A stretch of DNA of 64,000 nt. Origin: an uncultured delta proteobacterium. Lineage in GTDB: Bacteria > Desulfobacterota > WTBG01 > CAIYCZ01. Position 1 is the first letter of the stretch. Every line of letters begins with the position of its first letter. The DNA lies in assembly GCA_963803975.1 (NCBI GenBank), contig CAWDOY010000001.1, positions 1 through 64,000 of the forward strand, written 5' to 3'. The notes under the pieces are model-generated. The model had not been told where the DNA came from and did not search any database. It saw only the letters and a program-made list of their open reading frames with translations. The translations under genes and the position numbers were made by a program. Positions 43,183 to 58,785 of the stretch are shown here, in pieces.

Positions 43183-46125
43183 ATGGCGTTGCAGAATGTA
43201 TCCCCCCAGTGGAGATCTTTTTTGGTGCGGTTTATTTTACCAACCGCCATCACCATCGCCCTGTTTTTAACTTCCATTTTTTCTATCGTTATTCCCACCA
43301 TTGAGAAAAACAGCCTGGACCGCAAGCGGGAGATGATCCGCGAACTGACCAACTCAGCCTGGAACATTCTGGCGAAACTGGAGAACGATGTGCGGCTGGG
43401 GGTGCTGACCAGGGAGCAGGCCCAGAAGCAGGCCATTGACCAGATCCGCAACCTGCACTACGGCCAGGAGATGAAGGACTACTTCTGGATCAACGACATG
43501 CACCCGCGCATGGTTATACACCCGTACCGCACCGACCTGAACGGCAAGGATTTAAGCGACTACCAGGACCCGAACGGGAAACGGGTGTTCGTGGAATTTG
43601 TCAACGTGGTCAAAAAAGAGGGCTCCGGTTTTGTCAATTATATGTGGCAGTGGAAGGATGATAAAGCCCGCATTGTACCTAAAATCTCGTATGTCAAAGG
43701 ATTTGCGCCGTGGGGATGGATCATCGGCACCGGGATTTACATTGAAGACGTGAAGGCGGAAATTGCCCTGCTGATTCGCAATGTCATTGAGATCTCGCTG
43801 TTCATCCTGGTGGTCATGGCAGTGCTGCTGGCAACCATTATTATTCAGAGCTTCAGAACCGAGCAGCAGCGGCGCATTGCGGAGCAGGCGCTGCAGGAGT
43901 CTGAAGTGAAATACCGCACCCTGGTTGAGTCTGCTGCTGAAGGCATGCTTATGGCGCTCGAGGGCAGGTATATGTATGCCAACCAGACCATAGCAGCGCT
44001 GCTTGAATACAGCCAGGACGAGTTTTCGCAGATGCCCGTCCAGGAAATTTTCGTGCAGACACCAGCTCATCCCAGCTACCGGCACCTGCAGAATTTCATG
44101 GCGGGAAAGCCGCTTCCCGAAAGGTTTGAAGCGCAGTTGAAAACCAAATCAGGGGGCAGCAGGGATGTCATATTGTCCACATCCCCGATTGTTATCGGGG
44201 GCCGGGCAGGCTTTATCGTGGTTGCAACAGATATAACCCAGCGCAAGCAGGCCGAGGACGCGTTAGGTGTGAGCGAAGAAAAGTTTCGTACTCTGGCAAA
44301 CAACCTCAATGTCGGGCTGTTCAGGAGGACCATTGGCGACAGCCCGAAATTTATCGAGGTAAACCCGGCGCTGGTCTCGCTGCTTGGTTATGACAGCAAG
44401 GAAGAACTTCTTTCTATCTCAGCGGTCGATTTGTATGTTAATCCGGACGACCGGAAGAAATTTGAGCCAAAAGTCGAGCCGCAGGTTTCAAAAAGAGAAA
44501 TTAAAAGAGAAATTGTCAAGCTCAAGAAAAAAGACGGGACATTTTTTTTCTCCTCCATCTGGGCTGTTGTCATTAAAGATGAAGACGGGAATCCGCACTA
44601 TGTTGATGGGATTCTCGAAGACATAACAGACCTTAAATCCAGAGAAGAAGAGCAGGAACGCCTCCTTTCAGAAATGCAGGCGGCTTTGCTTTTTTTTAAC
44701 CAGCCGATAGAAAGCCTGCAGGTACAGGACGCCGTAGTATGTTCGCCCGCCACCAGCATTGCAGCGGCGGTATCCTTACTGGAGCAGCGGGAAACCGACG
44801 TCCTGTTGATACGAGATAACCAGGAAAACAATGTCGGGGTCATTACCGATCTGGACTTGAGAAAAAATGTTATGGCTAAAGGATGTCATCTGGATAAGCC
44901 CGTTTCAAGCATCATGAGTTCCCCCGTCATATCCATGTCCTGCAACTCGTGTATTTTTGAGGCCGGTCTTCTGATGGAGCAAAAACACATTTCCCATCTA
45001 TTTGTGACCAATAATCATGACCGTATTATTGGCGTGATTCGCAGTGACCACATCAGCGCAATTCAAAAATATTCTCCCACGATTCTTCTGCGGGATATCA
45101 ATAACGCCAAAGCTCCCCATGACATCATTGAGCACAATGCAGAACTCCCGTATCTTATCAATACCGTAATCAATAGCGGCGCAAAACCTCAATATATTAA
45201 TCATCTGACAACCATTATTGTAGATGCCGTGCTGCAAAAATTCATAGATTTTGCCATTCAGGAGCTTGGCATTCCTCCCGCCAGATTTACTTTTATAATT
45301 TTCGGCAGCGAGGGGCGTCAAGAGCAGACGCTGAGAACCGATCAGGATAATGCCATCATCTATGAAGATGTGCCGCCGGAGGCTGAGGAATCGGTGCAGG
45401 GGTATTTCCTGAATCTGGGGCAGCGGGTCTGCGGCTGGCTGCATCAGGCAGGGTATTCCTACTGCGAGGGAAACAATATGGCGCAAAATCCGCAATGGTG
45501 CCAGCCACTCTCTACCTGGAAGCGATATTTCAGTGAATGGATTGCCAACGGCACGGCAGAAGATCTGCTGAAAGCGAAAATCTTTTTTGATTTCAGAGGC
45601 GCTTATGGTGAACAGACTTTTGTGCAGCTGTTGCGAAAACATTTACATACGGTCATAGGGCAGAACCCGCGTTTTTTCCAATTGCTGGCAAGAAACGTGC
45701 TTCAGCTGAGCCCTCCCATAGGTTTCTTCGGGAATTTTGTTGTAGAATCGGTGGGAGAAAACAAGAAAGCTTTTGACATAAAAAGCTCCATGATGCCGAT
45801 TGTCGATTATGCAAGAATTTATGCGCTGCAGCATAACATAGCGGCGACCAATACCTTTGAACGATTAAAGCAGCTGTATGAACGCAACCTTCTTTCGCAG
45901 CAAAATTATCAGGAGATGATACAGGCATACAGCTATCTGATGCAGACCCGTCTTTGCACGCAGGCAGAGGCCATCATGCAGGGGAATAAACATCCCGATA
46001 ACTATGTCAGTCCCAGAAAACTGACCTACATTGAGCGCAAATTGCTAAAAGAGATATTTGCTCAAACAAAAAATTTTCAGGCGCGATTGAGCTATGACTT
46101 TACCGGACAGATGGGCGGTGTTTAA
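43183..46125 (+). CDS. Membrane sensor: TM-sCache_2-TM-PAS-PAS-CBS pair-DUF294 nucleotidyltransferase-DUF294_C
   Basis: YFWIND..MVIHP..Y.W Cache motifs; two PAS/PAC ending DITQRK and DITDLK; CBS GVITDLDL..IMSSPV; GSEGRQEQTLRTDQDN; C.GN.MAQNPQW, IFFDFR, DIK..PIVD.AR, NT.ERL. Confidence 0.88.
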   Translation: MALQNVSPQWRSFLVRFILPTAITIALFLTSIFSIVIPTIEKNSLDRKREMIRELTNSAWNILAKLENDVRLGVLTREQAQKQAIDQIRNLHYGQEMKDYFWINDMHPRMVIHPYRTDLNGKDLSDYQDPNGKRVFVEFVNVVKKEGSGFVNYMWQWKDDKARIVPKISYVKGFAPWGWIIGTGIYIEDVKAEIALLIRNVIEISLFILVVMAVLLATIIIQSFRTEQQRRIAEQALQESEVKYRTLVESAAEGMLMALEGRYMYANQTIAALLEYSQDEFSQMPVQEIFVQTPAHPSYRHLQNFMAGKPLPERFEAQLKTKSGGSRDVILSTSPIVIGGRAGFIVVATDITQRKQAEDALGVSEEKFRTLANNLNVGLFRRTIGDSPKFIEVNPALVSLLGYDSKEELLSISAVDLYVNPDDRKKFEPKVEPQVSKREIKREIVKLKKKDGTFFFSSIWAVVIKDEDGNPHYVDGILEDITDLKSREEEQERLLSEMQAALLFFNQPIESLQVQDAVVCSPATSIAAAVSLLEQRETDVLLIRDNQENNVGVITDLDLRKNVMAKGCHLDKPVSSIMSSPVISMSCNSCIFEAGLLMEQKHISHLFVTNNHDRIIGVIRSDHISAIQKYSPTILLRDINNAKAPHDIIEHNAELPYLINTVINSGAKPQYINHLTTIIVDAVLQKFIDFAIQELGIPPARFTFIIFGSEGRQEQTLRTDQDNAIIYEDVPPEAEESVQGYFLNLGQRVCGWLHQAGYSYCEGNNMAQNPQWCQPLSTWKRYFSEWIANGTAEDLLKAKIFFDFRGAYGEQTFVQLLRKHLHTVIGQNPRFFQLLARNVLQLSPPIGFFGNFVVESVGENKKAFDIKSSMMPIVDYARIYALQHNIAATNTFERLKQLYERNLLSQQNYQEMIQAYSYLMQTRLCTQAEAIMQGNKHPDNYVSPRKLTYIERKLLKEIFAQTKNFQARLSYDFTGQMGGV
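43315..43610 (+). repeat. 296-bp near-identical repeat, copy 1 (Cache domain core)
   Basis: Matches 47341-47636 with about 10 substitutions counted by eye and no indels. Confidence 0.92.
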
Positions 46126-46884
46126 TTGATACTGGTAACCTCTGATACGCACTGTTATTACGATACCATCAATCAGCAGGTCGAATATGCCGAGGCGGTC
46201 CTGAACAATGCGATCTCCTGCGTCATTCATCTGGGAGACTTCGGGATTTATAAAGCCAATCTGCATGAATACTTCATCAGGAAGGGCAAGCGGTTTATCC
46301 GGCCGGTATATTTCATAGAAGGTAATCACGAGGACTTTCAGGCCTTCCCCCGGCTCACGGAAAAATACCGGGATTTTTTCACCTACCTCCCGCGGGGAAC
46401 CGTCCACACCCTGGATGGCTACCGCTTTCTGGCGCTCGGCGGGGCAGCCTATATGGATTCTTTCAACACGCAGAAGGGGGCGATCATCACAGATGCCAAT
46501 ATTAATCAGTGCCTTTCAATCCCTCGGGATGCCGTTGATATTATTCTTACCCATGACTGTCCGAACGGGATCGGCGTGCCGAATACGCCGGGGCTTGATT
46601 ATTATGGCGCAACCGGTTTTCCCCGAAGCGACGAACTGGGGGCTCATTTTAAGCCGCGACTGTGGCTGTTCGGCCATCATCACAAGCTCTTTGAATACGG
46701 GGATGCCTGTACGCGGTACTACGGTCTTGGCGACACCTGGAAGGGATTCGGCCTTTTAGATGCAGATTATCAGTTCAGGATTGTGATGCACCAGATTGCA
46801 TGGGAGCGCCCGCCCCTTATTGAAAGACTGCTGATAAAGCTCAAAATCATCAGGCCGGACCGGCCCCCGGTCAGCATCGAGTGA
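46126..46884 (+). CDS. Calcineurin-like metallophosphoesterase
   Basis: SDTH, HLGDFG, EGNHE, THD, FGHHH motifs; TTG start directly after upstream stop. Confidence 0.88.
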   Translation: MILVTSDTHCYYDTINQQVEYAEAVLNNAISCVIHLGDFGIYKANLHEYFIRKGKRFIRPVYFIEGNHEDFQAFPRLTEKYRDFFTYLPRGTVHTLDGYRFLALGGAAYMDSFNTQKGAIITDANINQCLSIPRDAVDIILTHDCPNGIGVPNTPGLDYYGATGFPRSDELGAHFKPRLWLFGHHHKLFEYGDACTRYYGLGDTWKGFGLLDADYQFRIVMHQIAWERPPLIERLLIKLKIIRPDRPPVSIE

Positions 46885-47048
46885 TGTTTTTTAAAACAGA
46901 AACCCTTAATCAGTCCCACCTGGTTATTCAACCTCGCACCCTCTGAGCCCTGCAAATTTTTTCTTTTTTATCCCGGCTTGAACGAGACAGTTTTTGTATT
47001 TTAAAATAATTTTATTTCATTATGGCTATCGCGCCATGAAACCGGCCA

Positions 47049-47077
47049 TTGACACGACGGTCTCTTTAGCATATATA
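47049..47077 (+). promoter_or_regulatory. Sigma-70 promoter for the kinase-regulator-peptidase operon
   Basis: TTGACA-N17-TATACT. Confidence 0.7.
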
Positions 47078-47208
47078 CTCATTCTGTTTGTCCCCAGCCG
47101 CCTGGATGGTGCAGGGGTGCACCCGGGGTATCAGGCCAGCGCTGAGGGTATTGTAACACGAACTAAAACACGCACGGCAATCTACAGCATCAGTTTTTTC
47201 AAAACGTC

Positions 47209-48660
47209 ATGACAGCCCAGCAGCTACCTTTTCACTGGAAATCCTTTGGCATGAGGATTATTCTTCCCACCATCCTCACCATCGCGCTTTTCATCCTGGC
47301 GCTGTTTATGTTTATCATTCCCACCATTCAAAAAAACAGTCTGGACCGCAAGCGGGAGATGATCCGCGAGCTGACCAACTCAGCCTGGAACATTCTGGCG
47401 AAACTGGATAACGATGTGCGGCTGGGGGTGCTGACCAGGGAGCAGGCCCAGAAGCAGGCCATTGACCAGATCCGCAGCCTGCACTACGGCCAGGAGATGA
47501 AGGACTACTTCTGGATCAACGACATGCAACCGCGCATGGTCATACACCCGTACCGCACGGACCTGAACGGCAGGGATTTAAGCGACTACCAGGACCCGAA
47601 CGGGAAGAGGGTGTTTGTGGAATTTGTCAACGTGGTGAAGAAGGACGGCTTCGGCTATGTTGACTATTTGTGGCAGGACCGCGACAATAAAAATCTCGTT
47701 GTGCCTAAAATCTCCTATGTGAAGGGGTTTGCACCCTGGGGCTGGATTATCGGCACCGGGATTTACATTGACGACGTTCAGGCGGAAATCGCCCTGCTGA
47801 TCCGCTCCGTCATGAGGATTTCAGGGGTTATTCTGCTGCTGATGCTGCTGCTGCTCGCAAGCATTATCCGGCAGAGCTACCGCACCCAGAAACAGCTGTG
47901 GGTTGAAGAAGAGGAGCTTAAAAAAACCCAGGCCAGCCTGGCATTTGCAGAAAAAATGGCGTCCCTGGGAAAGCTCTCGGCAATGGTCGCCCATGAAATC
48001 AATAATCCTCTTTCAGGAATTCTATCCTATGCCAAACTCTCATCCCGATATCTGAGCAAAGCTACCGGTGACACTGAAACCGCGGCAGAGATCAATAATA
48101 ACCTCTCTTTTATCGCTGCCGAGGCCAAACGTTGCGGAGACATCGTCAAAAACCTGCTGCAGTTTGCAAAACGGGCTTCAGGGGAAGTGAAAGAGACGCA
48201 TCTCAATGAAATAGTTGATGTAAGCATGCAAGTGATTGCCCACAGCGTCAAGATGAAAAACCTGGAGCTCAAAAAACAGCTGGGCCAGGGAGACGACCTG
48301 ATTCAATGCGATGCAGGCGCCATTCAGCAGATCCTTATCGCCATGATTGTTAATTCCATAGAATCGTCATCACCCGGGGGGACCATTATTGCCCGCACTG
48401 ACTATAATGATGCGGCGTGCGTTCGGATCGCGTTGAAGGATTTTGGGGCGGGAATTGCCCCTGACGTGCTGCCGCACATATTTGAGCCTTTTTTCTCCAC
48501 AAAAGAATCAAATAAGAGCATGGGGCTGGGGCTGTCGGTGGTATACGGCATTGTCCAGCGGCACGGCGGTACCATCAGCGTGGATTCGCGCGCGGGCGCG
48601 GGTACCGAGTTTGTCATCACCCTCCCCCGCACACAACAGACCGCTGCCAACCAAACGTAA
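47209..48660 (+). CDS. sCache_2 sensor histidine kinase (NtrB-like)
   Basis: TM-Cache-TM; EKMASLG..VAHEINNPL H-box; N, DFGAGI, FEPFFSTK, GLGL boxes. Confidence 0.93.
   Translation: MTAQQLPFHWKSFGMRIILPTILTIALFILALFMFIIPTIQKNSLDRKREMIRELTNSAWNILAKLDNDVRLGVLTREQAQKQAIDQIRSLHYGQEMKDYFWINDMQPRMVIHPYRTDLNGRDLSDYQDPNGKRVFVEFVNVVKKDGFGYVDYLWQDRDNKNLVVPKISYVKGFAPWGWIIGTGIYIDDVQAEIALLIRSVMRISGVILLLMLLLLASIIRQSYRTQKQLWVEEEELKKTQASLAFAEKMASLGKLSAMVAHEINNPLSGILSYAKLSSRYLSKATGDTETAAEINNNLSFIAAEAKRCGDIVKNLLQFAKRASGEVKETHLNEIVDVSMQVIAHSVKMKNLELKKQLGQGDDLIQCDAGAIQQILIAMIVNSIESSSPGGTIIARTDYNDAACVRIALKDFGAGIAPDVLPHIFEPFFSTKESNKSMGLGLSVVYGIVQRHGGTISVDSRAGAGTEFVITLPRTQQTAANQT
47341..47636 (+). repeat. 296-bp near-identical repeat, copy 2 (Cache domain core)
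   Basis: Matches 43315-43610. Confidence 0.92.
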
Positions 48661-48677
48661 TAAAGGAGTTTTGCACG

Positions 48678-50021
48678 ATGAAACCAGCCGACATAGGAAT
48701 CCTTATTGTTGATGATGAAGCTTCGGTACGGGATGCTCTCTATAAATGGTTTAAATTTGACGGATACCGCGTAGATACGGCTGAAGAAGCCACCAGCGCG
48801 CTTAAAAAGCTTCAGGAGGATTCCTGGGAGATTGTTCTGCTGGATATTAAAATGCCGGGCATGGACGGGCTGGAACTGCAGCGGCAAATAAAAAAGATTG
48901 ATAAGGACATTATAACTATTATCATTACCGCCTTTGCCTCAGTTGATACCAGCATCCAGGCGCTCAAAGAGGGAGCGTTTGATTACATTGTCAAACCCAT
49001 CGACCCTGATGATATGAGCCATCTCATCAGGAATGCAGTTGAACAGAGACGGCTGCTTACTGAAAACATGCAGCTGCGGCAGCAGATTGAGGAAATCTCC
49101 TACCCGGATGAGATTGTGGGAGAAAGCCCGGCACTTAAAAAGGTCATGGATAAGGTTGCCACGGTCGCGCAGACCGATTCAACCGTCATGATCCGCGGAG
49201 AAAGCGGCACCGGGAAGGAACTGATCGCACGGGCTATCCACAGCAACAGCAACCGCAGGTATTTTCCTATCATTACCATCAATTGCGGGTCCTATGCGGA
49301 AGGGCTGCTGGAAAGCGAACTTTTCGGCCATGAAAAGGGGGCCTTCACCGGGGCGCTGTACCGGAGACGGGGCAAGCTGGAAATGGCCGACAAAGGAACC
49401 ATATTTTTGGATGAGATCGGCAATATCGGGGAGAAGATGCAAATGGATCTGCTGCGGGTAATTGAAACGCGGCAGTTCACCCGGCTGGGAGGCGATAAGC
49501 TTATCAGCGTTGATTTCAGGATTATCAGCGCAACCAACAAGGACCTGGAAAAGGCGGTCAGGGAAGGAAGCTTTCGTGAAGACCTGTATTACCGGCTCAA
49601 TGTTTTTTCCATAACCCTGCCGCAGCTGCGTGAGCGAAAATCAGATATTGCGCTGATAGCACGGTTTTTCGTGAATAAATATTCCCAGTCGATGAATAAA
49701 ACTGTTACCGATCTTTCTCCCGAAACGCTGGATATGCTCATGAAATACCACTGGCCGGGAAACATCCGGGAGCTGCGGAACGTTATTGAGCGGGCGATGG
49801 TGGGTGCGCGGGGTCCCCGCATTGAAGTATCCGATCTCGCTTTTCCCTTTCATCCTTCCTCAAAACTGTCAAGCGAAGAGACCCTGGAGGCAGTGGAAAA
49901 AAATCATATCAAAGATATTCTGGATCGCACCGGGGGCAATGTCGCTCAGGCTGCAGGCATCCTCAAGATCAGCCGGCTTACCCTGTATAATAAAATAGGA
50001 AAATACCGGTTAAAAAAATGA
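48678..50021 (+). CDS. Sigma-54-dependent response regulator (NtrC/AtoC family)
   Basis: Receiver IVDDE..LLDIKMP; GESGTGKE, ESELFGHEKGAFTGA, FLDEIG, FREDLYYRL, WPGNIREL; Fis HTH. Confidence 0.95.
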   Translation: MKPADIGILIVDDEASVRDALYKWFKFDGYRVDTAEEATSALKKLQEDSWEIVLLDIKMPGMDGLELQRQIKKIDKDIITIIITAFASVDTSIQALKEGAFDYIVKPIDPDDMSHLIRNAVEQRRLLTENMQLRQQIEEISYPDEIVGESPALKKVMDKVATVAQTDSTVMIRGESGTGKELIARAIHSNSNRRYFPIITINCGSYAEGLLESELFGHEKGAFTGALYRRRGKLEMADKGTIFLDEIGNIGEKMQMDLLRVIETRQFTRLGGDKLISVDFRIISATNKDLEKAVREGSFREDLYYRLNVFSITLPQLRERKSDIALIARFFVNKYSQSMNKTVTDLSPETLDMLMKYHWPGNIRELRNVIERAMVGARGPRIEVSDLAFPFHPSSKLSSEETLEAVEKNHIKDILDRTGGNVAQAAGILKISRLTLYNKIGKYRLKK

Positions 50022-50042
50022 TAGTGCTGCCGCGCCGATAGT

Positions 50043-50570
50043 ATGTTCTATATCTACATCGTGCCCATCAGCGGACAGGGACTCGGCTGTATTGAAGAAT
50101 TGCAGCGCTGCGTTGAGCATGCCTTTGGCGTCAAGACGAAATGCCGCGCCTTTAACGTCAACCTGCCGGACACCTTCGACCCCCACAGAAAACAGTACAA
50201 CTCCTCTCTTATCCTGCGGCAGTTAATTGCCGCGCCCCCAGCGGATGCATACAAAATTCTGGGGATTACCGGCATGGATCTTTTTATTCCCATACTCACC
50301 TATGTTTTCGGCGAGGCACAGCTTGACGGCATCGGGGCGGTGGTTTCGCTGCACCGGCTCAACAATCAGTTTTACGGTTTGCCGGAAGACCCCGGCCTGA
50401 TGCATGACCGGCTCCTGAAAGAGGCAGTGCATGAGCTGGGGCACACCTTCGGGCTGCTCCACTGCTTTCATCCCGGCTGCGTACTTAACGCATCCACCTA
50501 TGTGGAGGACATTGATCAGAAGTCGCGCGAACTTTGTTTCACCTGCCGGGAGACCATCAGATTGAAGTAA
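50043..50570 (+). CDS. Archaemetzincin-family Zn-dependent peptidase
   Basis: RKQY, DLF.P.LTYVFGEA, KEAVHELGHTFGLLHC...C, D.K...C..C. Confidence 0.9.
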   Translation: MFYIYIVPISGQGLGCIEELQRCVEHAFGVKTKCRAFNVNLPDTFDPHRKQYNSSLILRQLIAAPPADAYKILGITGMDLFIPILTYVFGEAQLDGIGAVVSLHRLNNQFYGLPEDPGLMHDRLLKEAVHELGHTFGLLHCFHPGCVLNASTYVEDIDQKSRELCFTCRETIRLK

Positions 50571-50649
50571 GGTTCAGGGGGCGGAACATCAGTGGAGGGG
50601 TGGCAGAGGTATGGCGTGCCAGATAGGATTTTGTATGACAGCCGCCAGC

Positions 50650-51453
50650 TTATGGCACGGTCTTTGTTGTTAAGCAGTTTTCCGGAGAAGGGCAATTCTC
50701 GCTCCGGGATAAAGAGTCTATTATCTGATAGTACTGCTCCGCGCTGAGAAGCTCGGCAAGAGAATTTATTTTCACCCCCCCATCCTGCATGGTGGGGCCG
50801 AGGTCGTTCGATGAGTGCTGCAGCATTGCCGTGCCCGCTGCAGTCAGTTCCTGGTGCTTCTGCTGGTACCAGGCGAGAGCCTTTTTGCCGAACAGCAGGT
50901 TCCGCAGGTCATGTTCAAGGGTTGCGGGCTTTACGGTGACCATCCACCCCTCATCCCAGGGGTCGCTCATTATCAGCTCAGGTTCCTTTTGCAGCCGCTT
51001 GTTTATCAGCTGGATGGTTCCGGTAAGCGGTGCAATAACCGGTATGATATGGTGTTCCTGAATTATGTGCGCGCAGCATTCCCCCTGGCGTATCATCTCG
51101 CCTTCCTGCGGCAGAACTACTGCTTTCAACCGAACCATCAGCCGGGTCAGCACATCATCAATGCCAATCCGGACATTTTCCGGGTCCTCAACTTTTACCC
51201 AGCAGTGACCGGGATGATAAAAGAGCGACCAGCGCAGATGGAGAGAGGCATCCGGCACTGAAGAGAGCTCTTCCCCGGTCCCGGCTTCCTGCCGGGAATC
51301 CTCTGCTGCGGCCTCATTGCGCATCACCTGATCAAACATGCAGGTTTCGCACCGGTAGTCACGGGCGCAGAGCTTATAGGAGATCAGGCCGGTGGTCATC
51401 CAGACGCATCTTTTTTCTTCTTCCGGAATCAGATGACACTCTTTTTTGCTCAT
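50650..51453 (-). CDS. GcvH-like protein lacking the lipoyl lysine, with N-terminal Cys4 motif
   Basis: FYHPGHCWV, VRIGID, APLTG..IN..L..PELI.SDPW.EGW H-protein fold; ESVK position reads IQEH; CVWM..G..SYKLC..DY.C..C. Confidence 0.82.
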   Translation of the reverse strand: MSKKECHLIPEEEKRCVWMTTGLISYKLCARDYRCETCMFDQVMRNEAAAEDSRQEAGTGEELSSVPDASLHLRWSLFYHPGHCWVKVEDPENVRIGIDDVLTRLMVRLKAVVLPQEGEMIRQGECCAHIIQEHHIIPVIAPLTGTIQLINKRLQKEPELIMSDPWDEGWMVTVKPATLEHDLRNLLFGKKALAWYQQKHQELTAAGTAMLQHSSNDLGPTMQDGGVKINSLAELLSAEQYYQIIDSLSRSENCPSPENCLTTKTVP

Positions 51454-51590
51454 AGACTTGCAACCGTATTCAGCCGGGTTGTGATAAACAGACATGTATG
51501 TATAGTAGCGTTTTTGTTAACAGCCCTGAAAAGTTTTATAATATATCCCGTGTGTTCGATCTCTCCTGTTTTTTCTGGGCGTTCAGGAGA

Positions 51591-51624
51591 TGCGGCCCCG
51601 CACCGTAGATGGGGCGGGGCCGCA
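51591..51624 (-). terminator. GC-rich stem-loop downstream of the OFA transporter
   Basis: 11-bp stem TGCGGCCCCGC/GCGGGGCCGCA; no clear U-tract. Confidence 0.5.
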
Positions 51625-51631
51625 GGGGTGA

Positions 51632-52963
51632 TTACTTATCCTTTTTTTCTATTTTTTCACCACCGTCAGCCATGGTAAAACCCAACTGGGGTTCAAATAT
51701 GACGCCGGCGGGAACAGTGGCAGGCTTGGATGCTTTCATGGAGAAGGTCAGCCCGGCTCCCACAATGAGCATAATCGCAGCTATCAGAAAGGATGAGCTG
51801 AAACTTCCGGTGTTTGTTTGCAGCATCTGGGATACCCTGCTCATGACAAACCCGCCAATCCCCCAGGCCGTGAACATGATTCCATAGTTAATGCCGAACG
51901 ACTTGAGCCCCCACAGATCCTTGGTGAGAGACGGAAACAGGGACAGGTTTGATCCATAGTTAAAGCCGATAAACGTTGCCAGCAACAGCATCAGGACTGC
52001 ACTCGGGTGCTCTGCGCCGACCAGCGGGATGGCGGCAAGCATAAGCACTGCCTGGAACAGAAGCATCATCAGCATCGTATAATTTCTGCCGATTTTGTCG
52101 GATAATATGCCGGCTATAATGCGGCCGCCGGCATTGCCCACCGCCATGATGGCCACTGCCAGGAATGCTGCATTGGGCATGCTCTTCTTTGCCATGCCGG
52201 CGATGCTGCTGATAACCATCAGTCCCACGCCAGCACCGATGAAATAGATAAACCAGAGCACATAAAAGTTGGCTGACTTCATCATTTGTGCGGGAGTGGC
52301 ATCAACGCTCAACGCGGATTTTTTAACGGCTCCCTTTTTGTTCTGTGTCGCAGCTTCAGGCACATAGCCCTGCGGAGGATTAACCAGCAGCAGGGAAAGC
52401 CCGCACACCACGACAAGAAAAGCAACGCCAAACAGCATCATTGAATTATTGATGCCCATGGTTTTTAAGAGATACTCGGACAGGGGCGCGATATAAACTG
52501 ATGCGAGCCCGAAACCAGCCACCACCAGCCCTGCAATCAAGCCGGTTTTTGCCGGAGGGAACCATTTCAGGGCCGGCGGCGTTGCCGCGGAATAGCCGAA
52601 ACCGATCCCCGCTCCGGCCAGCACGCCGAACCCCAGAAGCCATGCTGCGTAACTATTGGACTGAGAACACAGCAGCAACCCGATCGCCACGAGAATGCCG
52701 CCGATAAAAGCAGTTATGCGCGGCCCAACCTTATCCTGACACTTGCCGGCAATGATCATTGAGAATGCAAAACAGAGACAGCAAACAGAGTACGGGTCAT
52801 TCATCTGCGCTGCACTCCAGCTGAAGATGCCGTCTTTTGCCTCAATTGATTTTGCTATGGAGCCCTTGAAAATACTCCAGGTATACAGAATGCCAAGGGC
52901 AAGGTTAATGCCGGTTCCTGCGAATGTTACCATCCATCCTTTGTTTTTTACTGCCTGTGTCAT
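51632..52963 (-). CDS. OFA-family MFS transporter (oxalate/formate antiporter-like)
   Basis: LGILYTWS.F, QDKVGPR, G.G.G.GY, KWFP..TGL..G, N..GR...G.LSDKIGR, NYG..FTAWG; about 12 TMs. Confidence 0.9.
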   Translation of the reverse strand: MTQAVKNKGWMVTFAGTGINLALGILYTWSIFKGSIAKSIEAKDGIFSWSAAQMNDPYSVCCLCFAFSMIIAGKCQDKVGPRITAFIGGILVAIGLLLCSQSNSYAAWLLGFGVLAGAGIGFGYSAATPPALKWFPPAKTGLIAGLVVAGFGLASVYIAPLSEYLLKTMGINNSMMLFGVAFLVVVCGLSLLLVNPPQGYVPEAATQNKKGAVKKSALSVDATPAQMMKSANFYVLWFIYFIGAGVGLMVISSIAGMAKKSMPNAAFLAVAIMAVGNAGGRIIAGILSDKIGRNYTMLMMLLFQAVLMLAAIPLVGAEHPSAVLMLLLATFIGFNYGSNLSLFPSLTKDLWGLKSFGINYGIMFTAWGIGGFVMSRVSQMLQTNTGSFSSSFLIAAIMLIVGAGLTFSMKASKPATVPAGVIFEPQLGFTMADGGEKIEKKDK

Positions 52964-53052
52964 ACTTCCTCCTTTTGTTTATGAACTTCTGCTGCCGTCA
53001 ATAGGGTCTATAAATAAATACACGAACCCTTATATTTTTCAGACTTTCTTTT

Positions 53053-53068
53053 ATCAATATCCATGCCA
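53053..53068 (-). promoter_or_regulatory. Candidate sigma-54 (-24/-12) promoter of the OFA transporter
   Basis: Minus strand TGGCATGGATATTGAT versus consensus TGGCACG-N4-TTGC(A/T); correct spacing, -12 GA variant. Confidence 0.55.
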
Positions 53069-53323
53069 TAGGCAAGGGAATGCCGCTCATGAGAAAATAA
53101 CTAAAAATACAAAATAAAATCAAATAGTTGGAATGATTATGGATAGGCAACAAAATAAACAGATAAAGATAAATTACAGCCCTAATGTTCAATAATTAAA
53201 CATAAAAAAACTGCTTCCGCGATTAAAATTAATTCTAAAGCTAATTCAAATGATTAGACGGAGCTTGCGTGTTCACATATTAAACACCATGATGTTAAAT
53301 TTATGAACTTTTGTATTTTGGCC

Positions 53324-53352
53324 TTGACATTGATGGAATATTTGAATATAAA
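53324..53352 (+). promoter_or_regulatory. Sigma-70 promoter for DUF485-actP
   Basis: TTGACA-N17-TATAAA. Confidence 0.55.
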
Positions 53353-53423
53353 ATCCCATTAATTTAAAGCAAGTAAAGATTTATTAAGCAAAGTAAGCAC
53401 TATAGATAAATAAGGAGGAGACT

Positions 53424-53692
53424 ATGGCACACGGACCAACGACACAATGGGGAGAGGACAAAGCGTCAGAGTACAAGTCAAAGCTCGGGGTGTATCTGTT
53501 TATTTTTTATACTTTAGTGTATGCCGGCTTTATAATCATAAACGTAGTGAGTCCCAAACTGATGGGAGTAAAAGTGATTTAGGCCTTAATCTGGCAGGCG
53601 TGTACGGGTTCGGTCTGATTCTACTGGCTATCGTTATGGGACTTATTTACAACTACCTCTGTTCACAAAAGGAATATGCAGTTAATAAATAG
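53424..53692 (+). CDS. DUF485 (YjcH-like) small membrane protein; frameshift near 53580
   Basis: AGGAGG RBS; MAHGP..KSKLGVYLFIFY..YAGFI..PKLM then LGLNLA..GFGLI..GLIYN; precedes actP-like gene. Confidence 0.75.
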
Positions 53693-53707
53693 CAAGGAGA
53701 CTGAGCA

Positions 53708-55609
53708 ATGATTTATGCAGCTTCGCCGTTCGCAATCGGCTTGTTTATCGCGTTTGTGTTATCTGTTCTCGGGATTTCGTCGTATTTTGCCAAGAAGACG
53801 CAGTCATCAAAAGGGTATTATGCGGCCGGTGGAACCATTCACTGGGGTGTCAACGGCATAGCGTTTGCCGGTGATTATCTTTCTGCCGCCTCATTTCTGG
53901 GAATCTGCGGGATGATCGCATTTGACGGTTATGACGGATTTCTGTATTCCATAGGGTATCTTGCTGGCTGGGTTGTGGCCTTGTTTGTGGTGGCAGAACC
54001 CCTGAAGCGTTTCGGTAAATATACGTTTACCGACGCGCTTGATTATAAATTCGGTTCCAAGGGAATACAGCTCACCGCAGCCATCAGCACCCTTGTTGTT
54101 TCCCTGTGCTATCTGGTGCCGCAGATGGTCGGCGCCGGCGACCTGGTTACTCCGCTGCTGGGATTTCCCCATTATGTCGGGGTTATCATGGTTGGCGCTA
54201 TTGTTATATTCATCGTGGCGACAGCCGGCATGACCTCAACAACGTATGTTCAATTTATAAAAGGCGGCCTCCTGATCGTTTTTTCCACAATTCTTACCAT
54301 CTGCGTTTTCAATAACGGTATTTCAAAGAAACCTTCAGAAAATTACCACGAGTTTAAAGCACTGAAAGCTGTTGCCGCAGGAGGAGCTATTACTGCAGTT
54401 GAGGACACGTCCTATAAAATCGCCGGTGAATTTAAAGATAAAAAGGGACAGTTTGTAAAGCTTGAAAAAGACGGCATTAATTCATGGTGGAAGGCCGGTG
54501 AAAAAAATGGGGCGCCGGTGCTTGAAGAAGCACTCTCGCTCACGACTCGCGCGGACGGCACCAAGCTCTACAATGGCGAGCCCAAAGAAGCGCGGAAGTT
54601 TTTCCAGGTCGGCAGCGCAAGCAAGATTATTGTGGATGGCCAGGAAGTTGACAAGACCGGCGGCCTGGGTCCGTTTCAGTTCCTTGAGACTTTGGAATCA
54701 AGCGAGATTGTCCGTTTCGGCAAGGCAGCTATCAGCGACGGCAAAGACAAGGTTTCAGTCTTTTATCAGAACCCGACTTCCGGAAAAGATATCATGCGCC
54801 CCGGGCTGAAATTTAAAGTGGATAAGGGCTCTGATTTCATGTCAAAACTTAATTTCGTGTCCCTTATGATCGCCCTGTTTTTCGGCACCTCCGCACTTCC
54901 GCACATCCTCATCCGCTATTACACGGTCCCCAGCCCGAAAGACGCGCGCAAATCAACCATTGTTGCCATCGGCTCCATCGGTTTTTTCTACATCCTCACC
55001 CTGTTCATGGGCCTGGGGGCAATGGTCTCCGGCGTCATTGACCTTGAGAGCAGCAACATGTCGGCGCCGCTGCTCGCAAAATATTTCGGCACCGCCCTTT
55101 TTGCCATAATATCCGCAATCGCTTTCGCGACGGTTCTTGGTACGGTGAGCGGCCTGATTGTCGCCGCCTCAGGAGCAGTGGCACATGACCTGATGTCAAA
55201 TTTTTTAGGCATTGAAATGACCGATCAGGGCCAGGTTAAGGCAGGGAAAATTTCGGCAGTTGTTGTCGGCTGTATCGCAATACTGCTGGGCATACTCTGC
55301 AAGGGAATGAACGTATCGTTTCTCGTAGGCCTTGCGTTTGCCGTGGCCGCATCCGCCAATCTGCCGGCAATCATCATGCTGCTGTTCTGGAAAAAAACGA
55401 CCTCTAAAGGGATTGCCGCTTCCATTGTAGTAGGCATGGTATCAGCGCTGGGGATGATTCTGCTCTCTCCCAGCACCTATGCGGACATTTATGGCCTGCC
55501 TGCTACACAGGCCCCCATTCCCCTTGATAACCCCGGCATCATATCGATACCGCTCAGTTTTATAACGCTGGTGGTGATTTCACTGGTGACACAGAAGCAG
55601 GCGAAATAA
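53708..55609 (+). CDS. actP: Cation/acetate symporter ActP-like (SSS family) with large hydrophilic insertion
   Basis: NGIAFAGDYLSAASFLG, AEPL..GKYT..D, QMVGAG, GT.ALPHIL.RYYTVP..ARKS, AFATVL.TV.GL, AASANLP. Confidence 0.88.
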   Translation: MIYAASPFAIGLFIAFVLSVLGISSYFAKKTQSSKGYYAAGGTIHWGVNGIAFAGDYLSAASFLGICGMIAFDGYDGFLYSIGYLAGWVVALFVVAEPLKRFGKYTFTDALDYKFGSKGIQLTAAISTLVVSLCYLVPQMVGAGDLVTPLLGFPHYVGVIMVGAIVIFIVATAGMTSTTYVQFIKGGLLIVFSTILTICVFNNGISKKPSENYHEFKALKAVAAGGAITAVEDTSYKIAGEFKDKKGQFVKLEKDGINSWWKAGEKNGAPVLEEALSLTTRADGTKLYNGEPKEARKFFQVGSASKIIVDGQEVDKTGGLGPFQFLETLESSEIVRFGKAAISDGKDKVSVFYQNPTSGKDIMRPGLKFKVDKGSDFMSKLNFVSLMIALFFGTSALPHILIRYYTVPSPKDARKSTIVAIGSIGFFYILTLFMGLGAMVSGVIDLESSNMSAPLLAKYFGTALFAIISAIAFATVLGTVSGLIVAASGAVAHDLMSNFLGIEMTDQGQVKAGKISAVVVGCIAILLGILCKGMNVSFLVGLAFAVAASANLPAIIMLLFWKKTTSKGIAASIVVGMVSALGMILLSPSTYADIYGLPATQAPIPLDNPGIISIPLSFITLVVISLVTQKQAK

Positions 55610-56501: not shown

Positions 56502-57167
56502 TCAGGATTTTTCCCCGGTCTGCAGCCACTGATAAAAAAGATCCGCTGCCAGCCATTCCCAGCGGCACAGCGGGTTATCAGGCAGCCACAGGCTCTGCAC
56601 CACCGGAGGTTCCCCTTCTTTCTCCATAATCCACGTGTAATAGGGGAAACGACTGCACACCAGGCGGGTTGACCGGGGCGGCACTACTTCTTCCCGTTCC
56701 ATGAAAAACCAGGTCAGCACCCAGAGCACTTCTCCCACCGGGCTGAACCTCCAGGTCACTTCCTCCTGAACGGTTTCTCTGTTCATCCCCTGCAGCTGTT
56801 CCAGTAAAAGAGGAATGATATGGTGCCAGGCTTCCGCACCGGTCTCGTGGCGCACGGCCTGCTCTATAATTTTCCTTTTCCCTTCGAGCGGGATAAGATT
56901 TAAATCACTGATAATAAACTTATGAATGTCCTGCAGCGCGAGATTGAGGTCCGGCTGCTGAGAGAGCTTTATGGCGGGCAGGTCATCGAGTGCCCGGGCG
57001 ACAATTCCCTCTGCCTGGTAGTGGTTAAACAATTCGCGCACCCAGGCATTCAAACAATAGCCTTTTTCAGGCGGCAGCAGTTCCTGCGGAAGGCTGTATT
57101 CCCCCCGTGCCTTGAAATCCTCGTACATTTTTTGAATCAGTGAAGATGCCATTGTTTCTCCTGTCAT
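56502..57167 (-). CDS. Hypothetical protein
   Basis: 221-aa ORF downstream of the radical SAM trio on the same strand; no family recognised. Confidence 0.55.
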   Translation of the reverse strand: MTGETMASSLIQKMYEDFKARGEYSLPQELLPPEKGYCLNAWVRELFNHYQAEGIVARALDDLPAIKLSQQPDLNLALQDIHKFIISDLNLIPLEGKRKIIEQAVRHETGAEAWHHIIPLLLEQLQGMNRETVQEEVTWRFSPVGEVLWVLTWFFMEREEVVPPRSTRLVCSRFPYYTWIMEKEGEPPVVQSLWLPDNPLCRWEWLAADLFYQWLQTGEKS

Positions 57168-57236
57168 TAGTTATGCATGCTGTTACTGCACGGGGTAAAT
57201 AGGGATGGCACGTGTTCTTGACATGATGACCGTTTT

Positions 57237-58742
57237 TCAGGAGGAGCCGAACCCAAAGCTCATGAGACGCTCGCGTATTTTAGTTTTAAATGTTGGAAGA
57301 GCAATTTTAATCGTGAGCAGCAGGTTGTAATTAAAAGCTTTCAGCATAAGGTAGAAATAAGATACGGGTTCAATAAAAATCACGATGAAAAAATATAAAA
57401 TAGCAAGCACTGATTTTGCAATCAGTTTTTCTCTGTTCCGTACAAAATAGTCTATCATGGGTGATGTAATCAGCGGAGAAATCCTCACCAGTTTATTCAA
57501 ATACGTGGGCTGGTAGTTAAAATAATTTCTGATCCCCAGATCAAGGGAACCCATTTTTTCGTGAAGCAGGTCAAAAATCTCCGTACCTTTATAGAAGGTG
57601 AGGGTAAAGAGCTGAAGCTGAAAAGGCTTGCGCACGTTCTGCAGGACGCGCACGGTGTTCAACGCATCCTCCTCTGTTTCAAACGGATTATCGAGGATGA
57701 CATCGTAGTATCCGCTAATGCCGTATTTCCGCACGATGTCGGTTGCCTCTAAAAATTTTTCATTGGATACATGACGGTGATATACTTCCCGGTTGATCCG
57801 TTCACTTCCTGACTGCAGCCCCATCGTTACCCAGGCAAGACCTGCCGGCTTCAGGGTCTTTACCTTCTCTTCGGTCAGGTGGAGCGGTGTTGAGCGCACA
57901 ATGAACGGCCGGGCTATCCACTTTTTATAATCGCCGACGAATTCCTCATGCCACTCTCTGCTGTGGGCCAGGAAACAGTCATCATGAATATTCACCAGGA
58001 TAATGCCAGGGAACTGTTTTATGACCGAGCGCAGCTCTTCAATCACATTGCCCGGGGATCTCTTTCTGATTTTTTTTGTGCCGTAAAGCCGGGATAAAAA
58101 TGAATTGCAGCAGTATGCGCAGGAAAACGGGCACCCCCGGGAGGTTATCATATTATATGCCTTGCCGTCATAGCGGGTATACTGCCTGAAAAGCTTCATG
58201 TCCATGGCGAGGATTTTGCCTCCATGGTAGACATAGGAATGAGCCGGCAAGTGTTCAGGGAACGGGATCCGGTCCAGATCATCTATAAGCGGGCGGAGCG
58301 GATTTTTTGTTATCCCTGAGTCATCTTTAAAAGCTATGTTGTTGATGTGTGCGATGCCGGCATTTTTTTCCAGTGCGCGCGCTATCTCCAGGACGGTCTC
58401 TTCCCCTTCACCAATACAGACCATATCAGCATACTCAAGACACTCTTCAGGGCTTATGGTGGGATGTATGCCGCCAACCAGAAACGGTATATCAGGATAC
58501 CGCGCTTTGACGCTTTTGCCGATATAGGCGGCAAACGGGGCTTCATAACTCATAAACCCGCAGCCAATTAACTGCGGCTGATACGATGCAATAAAATCGA
58601 GCAGGGGGTCTTGAACATTTTGGGTATGCGAGGGAATGAAAAGAATGGCTGACTGATGGCCCTCCTGCAGCAGGCTGGCATGCAGGTATTTAACCCCGAA
58701 ATTTTCAGTCGTTGGCAACAGGGATAGGAGAAGAATTTTCAT
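57237..58742 (-). CDS. B12-binding radical SAM protein
   Basis: GGIHPT, IGEGE, SRGCPFSCAYC, HDD.F, GLQSGS. Confidence 0.9.
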   Translation of the reverse strand: MKILLLSLLPTTENFGVKYLHASLLQEGHQSAILFIPSHTQNVQDPLLDFIASYQPQLIGCGFMSYEAPFAAYIGKSVKARYPDIPFLVGGIHPTISPEECLEYADMVCIGEGEETVLEIARALEKNAGIAHINNIAFKDDSGITKNPLRPLIDDLDRIPFPEHLPAHSYVYHGGKILAMDMKLFRQYTRYDGKAYNMITSRGCPFSCAYCCNSFLSRLYGTKKIRKRSPGNVIEELRSVIKQFPGIILVNIHDDCFLAHSREWHEEFVGDYKKWIARPFIVRSTPLHLTEEKVKTLKPAGLAWVTMGLQSGSERINREVYHRHVSNEKFLEATDIVRKYGISGYYDVILDNPFETEEDALNTVRVLQNVRKPFQLQLFTLTFYKGTEIFDLLHEKMGSLDLGIRNYFNYQPTYLNKLVRISPLITSPMIDYFVRNREKLIAKSVLAILYFFIVIFIEPVSYFYLMLKAFNYNLLLTIKIALPTFKTKIRERLMSFGFGSS

Positions 58743-58785
58743 GTATCGGCTTTATGTAGTAGAACGGATTGCAAGGGAAAAAGCG

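Follow-up and report, generated by a model that had tools for sequence, protein, structure and literature searches.

A probable genomic island in an uncultured delta proteobacterium joins a putative Cache-DUF294 receptor nucleotidyltransferase and a sigma-54 two-component cassette through a shared sensor

Our analysis of a 64,000-nucleotide stretch of an uncultured delta proteobacterium (contig CAWDOY010000001.1 of assembly GCA_963803975.1; referred to as the window) revealed that a block of nine genes at positions 43183-55609 consists of two separately conserved modules and a transporter pair, and that the two modules share a sensor. Module A comprises a receptor-like nucleotidyltransferase (NTase) with Cache, two PAS, CBS and DUF294 domains and a metallophosphodiesterase (MPE). 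Module B comprises a Cache kinase, a sigma-54 regulator and an archaemetzincin, which face an operon for a major facilitator superfamily (MFS) transporter and a GcvH-like protein. On balance we favour the view that the island joins two independent, widespread modules that read the same external carboxylate via a transcriptional and a post-translational branch. New here are the junction of the two modules via one apparently gene-converted sensor, the MFS gene as a predicted sigma-54 target, and the probable acquisition of the whole block as an island.

Genes in the window were called by Pfam and NCBIfam profile searches, with 20 open reading frames (ORFs) between 37.9 and 60.3 kb scanned. A first-pass annotation made from the sequence alone had placed nine genes in the block; all nine were recovered in place and their domain list was confirmed by both databases, with three identities corrected (the MFS transporter, the DUF485 protein and the GcvH-like protein). 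The features are as follows.

43183-46125, plus strand: receptor NTase, 980 amino acids (aa), with transmembrane segment (TM) 1, periplasmic sCache_2, TM2, two PAS, a CBS pair, DUF294 and DUF294_C (Pfam)
43306-43613, plus strand: Cache core copy 1, 96.1% identical to 47332-47639
46126-46884, plus strand: MPE, 252 aa, TTG start (Pfam Metallophos, 7.7e-15)
47209-48660, plus strand: sensor histidine kinase, 483 aa, with sCache_2, HisKA and HATPase_c (Pfam)
47332-47639, plus strand: Cache core copy 2 (DNA comparison)
48678-50021, plus strand: NtrC-type sigma-54 response regulator with REC, Sigma54_activat (AAA+ with GAFTGA) and HTH_8 (Pfam; GAFTGA read in the translation)
50043-50570, plus strand: archaemetzincin, M54 zinc protease, 175 aa (Peptidase_M54; NF033823)
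50650-51495, minus strand: GcvH-like protein, 281 aa, with a Cys4 motif, an H-protein fold (Pfam GCV_H, residues 93-206) and the tail GPTMQDGG
51632-52963, minus strand: SfMCT-type monocarboxylate MFS transporter, first gene of the MFS/GcvH-like operon (NF049980)
53053-53068, minus strand: sigma-54-type -24/-12 promoter TGGCAT-N5-TTGA, about 90 nucleotides (nt) upstream of the MFS start (comparison of 10 genomes)
53424-53692, plus strand: DUF485 (YjcH-like) gene, one base short in the assembly (orthologue comparison)
53708-55609, plus strand: ActP/MctC-like sodium:solute symporter (SSS), 633 aa (Pfam SSF, two stretches)

The TTG start of the MPE gene abuts the TAA stop of the NTase gene, and the two TM segments of the NTase are hydrophobic stretches bounding sCache_2 that can be read straight from the sequence. 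Gaps of 17 nt between kinase and regulator and of 21 nt between regulator and archaemetzincin were found, the latter indicating that the archaemetzincin is apparently co-transcribed with the two-component system. The minus-strand MFS and GcvH-like genes converge on these three genes, and the DUF485 and SSS genes diverge from the MFS gene. The true start of the GcvH-like protein is likely Met15 (51453). The whole genome encodes one DUF294 gene and one M54 gene, both within this block.

The shared sensor is apparent from both protein and DNA comparisons. The NTase and the kinase had been described in the first-pass annotation as carrying the same Cache domain, and indeed they share 67% identity over 278 aa and 88% over Cache residues 40-200. 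A 308-nt core (43306-43613 versus 47332-47639) is 96.1% identical while the flanking DNA is only 53-80% identical, and such a core amid less similar flanks points to gene conversion between the two Cache cores. We constructed a tree of 24 Cache domains from the window's order (21 genomes, from which 18 regions were fetched), in which the domain of the window kinase pairs with that of its own NTase (support 0.976) outside the clade of eight other kinases. In a second genome, G012, the domain of a second kinase is near-identical to that of the same genome's NTase (support 0.999), and the two cases look like independent within-genome homogenisations. In the nine genomes encoding both proteins their Cache domains are 66-88% identical. 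The earlier idea that one ligand drives two outputs appears probable, given the homogenisation of the Cache domains within this genome.

A sensor of the carboxylate type had also been proposed, and all seven pocket residues of the chemoreceptor PscD are present in both window proteins. PDB sequence matches of the Cache domain were Adeh_3718 (4K08, 2.8e-38) and PscD (5G4Y, 3.5e-37). PMC5062169 gives the PscD pocket as Y90, W92, H103, F126, Y143, W145 and K156, describes four ligands whose binding was measured (glycolate, acetate, propionate and pyruvate) and also places acetate in Adeh_3718. The NTase counterparts are Y100, W102, H113, F136, Y153, W155 and K167 (7/7 kept); the same Y, W, H, F, Y, W and K are complete in the kinase (7/7), and the seven residues are invariant across 16 NTase orthologues that are 45-83% identical. 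The window domains thereby resemble the sCache_2 carboxylate chemoreceptors PscD, McpP and Adeh_3718 (match E about 1e-37, 7/7 pocket residues) but differ in output, which is a kinase and a nucleotidyltransferase in the window, and in a Phe in place of PscD Met129. We infer that both Cache domains sense a C2/C3 monocarboxylate of the acetate/lactate type. In G012 and G014 a longer Cache-PAS kinase (624 and 749 aa; L081:5-1876 and L094:8658-10904, both on the minus strand) replaces the 483-aa type; in L094 (G014) a sigma-54 regulator follows this kinase, and an archaemetzincin was not found at that locus.

The separate conservation of the two modules became evident from their genomic neighborhoods. 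We fetched 75 NTase loci from the genome collection and kept the 35 in which the match began before residue 60 and ended after residue 900; the 40 loci set aside mostly encode the CBS-DUF294 part behind another N-terminus, together with a few cut full-length copies. The neighborhood co-occurrence that had been put forward as a check on a nine-gene system holds only in part. A phosphoesterase accompanies the NTase in 29/35 loci and an SSS transporter lies within 10 kb in 31/35 (E <= 1e-5; 23/35 at E <= 1e-60), which agrees with the statement that DUF294 often neighbours such transporters, and DUF485 occurs nearby in 20/35. A sigma-54 regulator, by contrast, is near the NTase in three loci, an archaemetzincin in one and a GcvH-like gene in one. 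Module B, with kinase, regulator and archaemetzincin facing the GcvH-like and MFS genes, is intact in 10 genomes. A full-length NTase is encoded in 12 of 17 sister-family genomes, counting copies split by contig ends or frameshifts; it was not found in the three other genomes of the window's family, although for G020 of the same genus this negative, obtained with the window query, is no proof of absence, since the genome is 91% complete and its contigs end inside the locus. The single coupled system that the first-pass annotation envisaged is not borne out, as the modules are separable and the cassette lies on another contig than the NTase-MPE pair in three genomes. Two NTase-MPE-DUF485-SSS sets, one of them with the full island, occur in G007 on contigs C29 and C30 (L086, L087) with many frameshifts that are probably assembly errors.

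The NTase has the domains expected of COG2905/DUF294 proteins, namely DUF294 (154 bits, cut-off 21; 2.8e-45), DUF294_C (149.4 bits, cut-off 22.5; 7.8e-44) and CBS (44.3 bits, cut-off 24). The cNMP_binding domain of soluble COG2905 proteins was not found by Pfam, and the N-terminal half instead consists of a TM, sCache_2 (1.3e-41), a second TM and two PAS domains. The Pol-beta motif G-[SG]-x9-13-D-x-[DE] with a third acidic residue is present as G708-S709-x10-D720-x-D722 and D803, which are invariant in 16 orthologues and in a 43-sequence set. Among 2254 protein-cluster matches, the best 120 are about 975 aa long, nearly all with the full domain set, and extend down to 44% identity in several phyla.

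An AlphaFold2 model of residues 502-980 (pLDDT 88.9) suggests that the enzyme part has the GlnE/DrrA fold. VIA-align gave a Z of 26.2 against GlnE 1V4A (326 residues aligned, rmsd 4.6), of 25.8 against GlnE 3K7D (303 residues, rmsd 3.0) and of 24.0 against DrrA 6YX5_B (299 residues, rmsd 3.7), with Foldseek E-values of 5e-10 to 3e-9 for GlnE-N, GlnE-C and DrrA, and the alignments span the NTase domain as well as the helical DUF294_C domain. GlnE-N, GlnE-C and DrrA are the non-CBS structures among the best 50 of 974 VIA-align rows, the remainder being CBS proteins, in a list of re-ranked Foldseek matches that is CBS-dominated, so that other transferase classes could still fit. A PDB sequence search with the CBS-DUF294 part returned CBS proteins only. 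The window NTase thus shares with GlnE and with DrrA/SidM of Legionella the fold of NTase plus helical domain (Z 24-26) and the G-S-x10-D-x-D motif; it differs from them in an identity of only 12-13%, in receiving its input from outside the cell and in having a separate MPE as putative remover.

The pairing of the NTase with a phosphoesterase, fused or adjacent, extends over many phyla. An MPE gene is found directly downstream in 9/35 loci and directly upstream in 6/35, a PHP domain is fused to the N-terminus in 10/35, a separate PHP gene lies directly upstream in 3/35 and a gene for a GAF-HD protein in 1/35. Searches by phmmer alone recovered an MPE in 9/35, and divergent MPE and PHP partners were added by Pfam scans of upstream ORFs and N-terminal extensions. 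In the window's order the MPE adjoins the NTase in 12 of the 12 loci in which the 3′ end of the NTase is present. Such a swap of partners among three unrelated hydrolase superfamilies would be expected of a required reverse reaction, and it recalls GlnD, in which NT and HD domains form an add-and-remove pair. A writer and an eraser, as the first-pass annotation had suggested, fit with both the modelled fold and the 29/35 pairing. The GAF-HD (HD_5) gene lies directly 5′ of a Cache-DUF294 gene in a cyanobacterial metagenome-assembled genome (L024:8678-9865, plus strand) and is a third type of phosphohydrolase partner; an eleventh PHP-fused protein was seen among the loci set aside (L053). In loci without a downstream MPE the genes 3′ of the NTase are unrelated to one another, and Pfam scans of 13 ORFs near the NTase, mostly small and just downstream, gave no family for ten, DUF485 for two and TerC for one; DUF6915 was not seen.

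The MPE shows all calcineurin-like motifs (D-x-H, G-D, G-N-H-[ED], H and G-H-x-H; Pfam 56.3 bits, cut-off 21.5), and residues D7, H9, G37, D38, G66, N67, H68, E69, H143, G183, H184, H185 and H186 are invariant in 38 sequences. Its model (pLDDT 91.7) folds best onto Dbr1 (2.3e-12, TMq 0.68), MPPED2 and Rv0805, and also onto SbcD/Mre11; a PDB sequence search returned only Dbr1 at E = 0.03. As modelled, the enzyme is closest to nucleotide phosphodiesterases and not to PPP-type protein phosphatases, and its fold would suit the removal of a 5′-NMP from a phosphodiester and equally an oligonucleotide substrate.

From the fold and the gene pairing we infer the post-translational branch of the favoured reading. 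The ligand bound by the Cache domain would act via the two PAS domains, gated by the nucleotide-sensing CBS pair as an energy-charge input, on the GlnE/DrrA-like transferase, which would put an NMP, most likely AMP, on a cytoplasmic protein, and the co-translated MPE would take it off again. By conserved neighborhood, the DUF485/SSS carboxylate importer and, alternatively, a carboxylate-activating enzyme stand out as the best target candidates. A bolder version, which we regard as possible and put forward tentatively, is that Cache-DUF294 proteins are a class of transmembrane receptor with protein AMPylation as output, which on binding external acetate, propionate or lactate tags an uptake component and is reset by a phosphodiesterase (MPE, PHP, HD or DnaQ, depending on the lineage), with the same sensor placed on a sigma-54 kinase. 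If this is true, AMPylation takes the place of phosphorylation, methylation or cyclic-nucleotide synthesis as a receptor output, and a single ligand sets both the activity and the synthesis of a transporter.

The evidence on the MPE also allows a different reading, in which carboxylate prompts the DUF294 enzyme to synthesise or lengthen a nucleotide signal or an RNA 3′ end (e.g. a 2′-5′ or cyclic oligonucleotide) and the phosphoesterase degrades the product. The closest folds of the MPE act on 2′-5′ RNA (Dbr1) or cNMP (MPPED2 and Rv0805) or belong to SbcD/Mre11, the MPE, PHP, GAF-HD and RNase T-like partners all include nucleases or oligonucleotide/cyclic-dinucleotide phosphodiesterases, and the NTase-MPE pair has no conserved protein neighbour in G001-G003. 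We consider this reading rather unlikely, as the protein (de)AMPylases GlnE-N, GlnE-C and DrrA were the only non-CBS structures among the best 50 of 974 rows, with Z of 24-26 and with DUF294_C included.

The transcriptional branch of the favoured reading concerns module B. Its regulator combines REC, AAA+ with GAFTGA and HTH_8 as in NtrC-type proteins. A putative -24/-12 promoter, recognised only by comparing orthologous upstream regions, lies roughly 60-120 nt before the MFS start codon in 10 genomes: the pattern TGG[CT][AG][CT]-N5-[TC]TG[CAT][ATC] has exactly one match on the correct strand upstream of the MFS gene in 10/10 genomes, and all ten sites conform to TGG[CT]A[CT]-N5-TTG[AT]. The background of this pattern is 59 matches in 304,127 bp on two strands (608,254 positions, 19 regions), of which 10 are the MFS sites and 49 are others. 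A scan of the whole window with the sigma-54 consensus TGGCAC-N5-TTGC at two mismatches showed no enrichment (55 matches versus 72 expected). About 130 nt further upstream most loci have, by eye, a palindrome TGTTTA-N-TAAACA that might serve as a binding site for the activator. In G014 and G012, which are without module B, a perfect TGGCAT-N5-TTGC[AT] is found upstream of DUF485-SSS. Scans of the window for sigma-70 promoters and terminators were not above shuffles (19 versus 14.8 and 12 versus 15.1); a TTGACA-17-TATAAA string upstream of DUF485 falls outside the scan rule, which required a final T, and was not taken as a promoter.

The presumed target of this promoter had been named an OFA transporter, an identity that we replace with the lactate type. 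The MFS protein scores 419.2 bits with NF049980 'L-lactate MFS transporter' (SfMCT; cut-off 320) and stays below the cut-offs of TIGR00890 (233.2 versus 374.85) and TIGR04259 (162.8 versus 335), and its PDB matches are SfMCT 6G9X at 6.2e-48 and OxlT at 7.3e-27. SfMCT is an L-lactate/H+ symporter of Syntrophobacter fumaroxidans, for which PMC6573034 names carboxylate-binding and proposed proton-site residues. Its carboxylate-binding residues Y119, N276, R280, Y331 and F359 correspond to Y124, N277, R281, Y336 and F364 in the window, whereas L145, F335 and C362 are replaced by Phe, Leu and Trp and the proposed proton site H250, D257, D378 and Y383 by S, K, T and F. Because of these changes at the proton site and at L145, F335 and C362, substrate and coupling of the window transporter may differ from those of SfMCT. 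Module B resembles the sigma-54 systems AtoS/AtoC and MctS/MctR of rhizobia, which control carboxylate uptake, in having an adjacent transporter as its presumed target. AtoC is the best NCBIfam model of the regulator (460 bits, below the cut-off of 714), and the MctS model matches the window Cache regions at 103-105 bits (below the cut-off of 700). Unlike in those systems, an archaemetzincin is added to the window operon and a GcvH-like protein to the target operon.

These two additional proteins may form a pair of their own. The archaemetzincin (NF033823, 156.4 bits, cut-off 145) has the HExxHxxGxxH motif and four cysteines, with H130, E131, H134, G137, H140, C141, C146, C165 and C168 invariant in 17 sequences. 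The GcvH-like protein matches Pfam GCV_H at 73.7 bits, which identifies the fold domain only; it failed the GcvH equivalog models TIGR00527 (63.2 versus 115.85) and NF002270 (72.3 versus 117), and its ESM Atlas matches are GcvH-family clusters only. The description of this protein as lipoyl-less applies to the window copy, which has His at the lipoyl-lysine position, but not to seven of its nine closest orthologues, which have Lys; in a set of 16 relatives, K, H, N, E, R or G stands there. In these 16 proteins C30, C43, C49, C52, D238 and G239 are invariant, at least 90% of rows have G233 and T235, and the tail motif is G-P-T-[ML]-Q-D-G-G with an invariant D-G.

A complex of the archaemetzincin and the GcvH-like protein was predicted with a median of 0.74 over three runs, the best of three controls reaching 0.00. 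This mark is met by 116 of 157 solved complexes and by 2 of 215 mismatched pairs, a calibration that is rough because own alignments were used. At least 85% of contacts are common to the runs, and the partner pLDDT is 67 or higher. In the model, the protease edge strand 82-94 and the zinc site (H130, E131, H134, H140) face tail residues 230-243, and Met236 of the GcvH-like protein contacts E131, H134 and H140. The archaemetzincin would therefore be predicted to bind the C-terminal loop in its catalytic cleft and probably to cut it. The first-pass annotation had coupled proteolysis and nucleotidylation in one system, but by this prediction the archaemetzincin would have the GcvH-like protein as its partner, outside the NTase branch. 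We know of no natural substrate of the archaemetzincin family, and a search of open-access papers and bioRxiv listed no paper on it; the conserved tail together with the docking prediction makes the GcvH-like protein a concrete candidate.

The same cassette occurs elsewhere in the phylum. A search for GcvH-like proteins in 301 genomes of the phylum gave matches in 88, and 14 loci were fetched, namely the 12 judged best by score and coverage and two tandem arrays. In 11/14 a kinase, a sigma-54 regulator and an archaemetzincin are encoded beside the GcvH-like gene; of the other three, one is 3.1 kb long and two are the tandem arrays, without the cassette. The 11 cassette kinases match only the catalytic half of the window kinase and bear other sensor domains. 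In 7/11 (L095 and L097-L102; e.g. L095:1443-5401) the ORF sizes fit the order ferredoxin, NrfD, GcvH paralogue and Cys-motif GcvH-like protein, and Fer4_11 and NrfD were confirmed by Pfam in the two loci scanned, L095 and L099. These phylum cassettes have the same four genes, Cys4 motif and tail as the window and a ferredoxin and NrfD-type pair in the target operon, while the window cassette has a carboxylate Cache domain on the kinase and a monocarboxylate transporter in the operon. Our searches of open-access papers and bioRxiv brought up no description of the archaemetzincin/GcvH-like cassette. No catalytic subunit is in sight in the ferredoxin/NrfD-type operons of L095 and L097-L102, and an 886-aa acetyl-CoA synthetase (ACAS_N, AMP-binding, AMP-binding_C) fused to a C-terminal GcvH domain is encoded inside the cassette of L101 (9176-11833, minus strand).

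Taken as a whole, the favoured reading would start with a C2/C3 monocarboxylate that binds the periplasmic Cache domains of both kinase and NTase. The kinase would then activate the sigma-54 regulator, which at the -24/-12 promoter would switch on the SfMCT-type transporter and the GcvH-like protein, and the archaemetzincin/H-fold pair might be an accessory of this class of sigma-54 two-component system; in parallel the same ligand would control reversible nucleotidylation by module A. Several observations weigh against this. In none of the ten promoters does the -12 element, which reads TTGA or TTGT, have the C of the usual GC. G001, G002 and G003 hold the module B unit and the NTase-MPE pair on different contigs, and there the pair has no transporter nearby and neighbours cell-wall and sugar genes; G012 and G014 have NTase, MPE, DUF485 and SSS, and a GcvH-like gene was not found in them at E <= 1e-15. 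Since the modules can occur apart, the NTase may have no substrate within the locus at all. Six of the 35 relatives are without a phosphoesterase (two of these loci end right after the gene), the MPE folds best onto an RNA 2′-5′ phosphodiesterase, and nucleases and cyclic-nucleotide phosphodiesterases are likewise found in the MPE, PHP and HD families. The score of the complex expresses how confident the model itself is, so that binding is predicted and cleavage not proven by it, and the DUF485 gene is frameshifted in this assembly. Finally, deletion of PP_0354, which encodes the soluble Pseudomonas homologue, gives only mild phenotypes (10.64898/2026.09.07.749794).

The separation of the modules in several genomes would also agree with a mere juxtaposition, in which they answer different signals and share an ancestral domain only, with no common island function, and in other loci of the phylum the cassette indeed bears other sensor domains. 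This appears improbable to us, as the Cache domains are 66-88% identical in all nine genomes with both proteins and were apparently homogenised at least twice, the ligand-contacting residues are equal (7/7), and both modules lie beside carboxylate transporters. A single pathway of nine genes in which NTase and MPE reversibly NMP-ylate the GcvH-like protein, by analogy to the SirTM/macrodomain system, is very improbable: the genes are adjacent in the window and in seven related genomes, share a sensor and were apparently acquired in one piece, but the GcvH-like gene segregates with kinase, regulator and archaemetzincin (DUF294 being absent from 11/11 phylum cassette loci), is found in 1/35 NTase loci and on another contig in G001-G003, its lipoyl-lysine position is not conserved whereas the protease-docking tail is, and no SIR2 or Macro match was found among the 20 ORFs scanned.

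The island reading is further supported by comparison with the nearest relatives. The flanks of the block are housekeeping genes, with an aldolase and dehydroquinate synthase II (DHQS) upstream and pyrE downstream. In G019 of the same family only 1.7 kb separates DHQS from pyrE, and the one gene in this interval is an MFS gene with 72% DNA identity to that of the window. In G020 the flanks are 91-95% identical to the window and the MFS remnant 74-77%, with both contigs ending inside the MFS gene. From these two genomes it follows that the 12.6-kb block of the window took the place of a resident MFS locus or was inserted there. The gene order from kinase to SSS equals that of G015 and G016 of the sister family, and the block is probably a horizontally acquired island for the use of short monocarboxylates. 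A lone SfMCT-like MFS gene between DHQS and pyrE was seen in relatives of the window's family (L111:1166-2560, minus strand; L109 and L110 at contig ends), with no kinase or regulator alongside.

The transporter pair had been called DUF485-ActP, which needs qualification: a DUF485 gene and an SSF transporter are present, but the former is frameshifted and the latter lies below the ActP and MctC cut-offs (Pfam SSF 232.6 bits; MctC 448.2 versus 670; ActP 409.4 versus 750 and 333.1 versus 1099). Compared with four orthologues the DUF485 gene is one base short at 53578-53580, leaving its halves in different frames, and the 81-aa ORF previously taken as DUF485 is a mixed frame without a Pfam match. 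With PF04341 (cut-off 28) the N-terminal fragment scores 17.1, the C-terminal fragment has no match and the intact L080 orthologue scores 28.7. Contigs of four public metagenome runs (four studies) were compared over 53200-54000, and all that bridge 53578-53580 carry an extra base, C or G (4/4), so that related populations have an unbroken DUF485 gene; an assembly error or a change private to the strain would each account for the break in the window, and contigs cannot separate the two. An N-terminal tail M-x-H-x-P-x4-G-x-D-x-A-x2-Y-K is shared by about 13 of 19 NTase-linked DUF485 orthologues in several phyla and is lacking in the two most distant copies (L057, L072); its H-x-P...G-x-D-x-A-x-x-Y-K part is one candidate AMPylation site. 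The SSS protein has an insert of about 170 aa (residues about 205-375) without a Pfam match after the sixth TM segment, between the SSF halves. By topology reading it should face the periplasm, and it is apparently shared by the 630-700-aa orthologues near NTase genes of other phyla and not by those of 520-570 aa.

DUF294/COG2905 enzymes were predicted to be signalling nucleotidyltransferases already in 1999 (Aravind and Koonin, as cited in PMC5715377), and PMC5715377, PMC9927547 and 10.64898/2026.09.07.749794 describe soluble cNMP-CBS-DUF294 proteins of Pseudomonas as targets of CrbS/R (MxtR/ErdR) linked to actP/yjcH and to the use of acetate, pyruvate and propionate. The PP_0354/PP_0353 operon of P. 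putida and Pflu5625, which belong to this acetate regulon, share with the window the core of CBS pair, DUF294 and DUF294_C, and the PP_0354 operon has a phosphodiester hydrolase next door (the RNase T-like exonuclease PP_0353), as has the window with the MPE. PP_0354 is, however, soluble with a cNMP-binding input, whereas the window NTase spans the membrane twice and has its Cache domain in the periplasm, followed by two PAS domains, and PP_0353 is a DEDD exonuclease, whereas the window partner is a metallophosphodiesterase, with PHP or HD in relatives. In the preprint of September 2026 (10.64898/2026.09.07.749794) the substrate of DUF294 enzymes is still given as not known. We found no paper on the Cache-receptor form of DUF294 in the open-access literature and bioRxiv. 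This form names for DUF294 enzymes a likely class of ligand, a likely type of reaction, a dedicated putative reversing enzyme and a short list of targets, so that the old question is now testable with few purified proteins. A sensor that gene conversion has apparently kept identical on two outputs might furthermore be a natural example of one signal by which anaerobic sediment bacteria adjust the uptake of organic acids both at transcription and after translation.

Beyond pyrE, at 56502-60327 on the minus strand, the window has a 221-aa ORF without a family match and a tandem pair of genes for B12-binding radical SAM proteins (501 and 513 aa).

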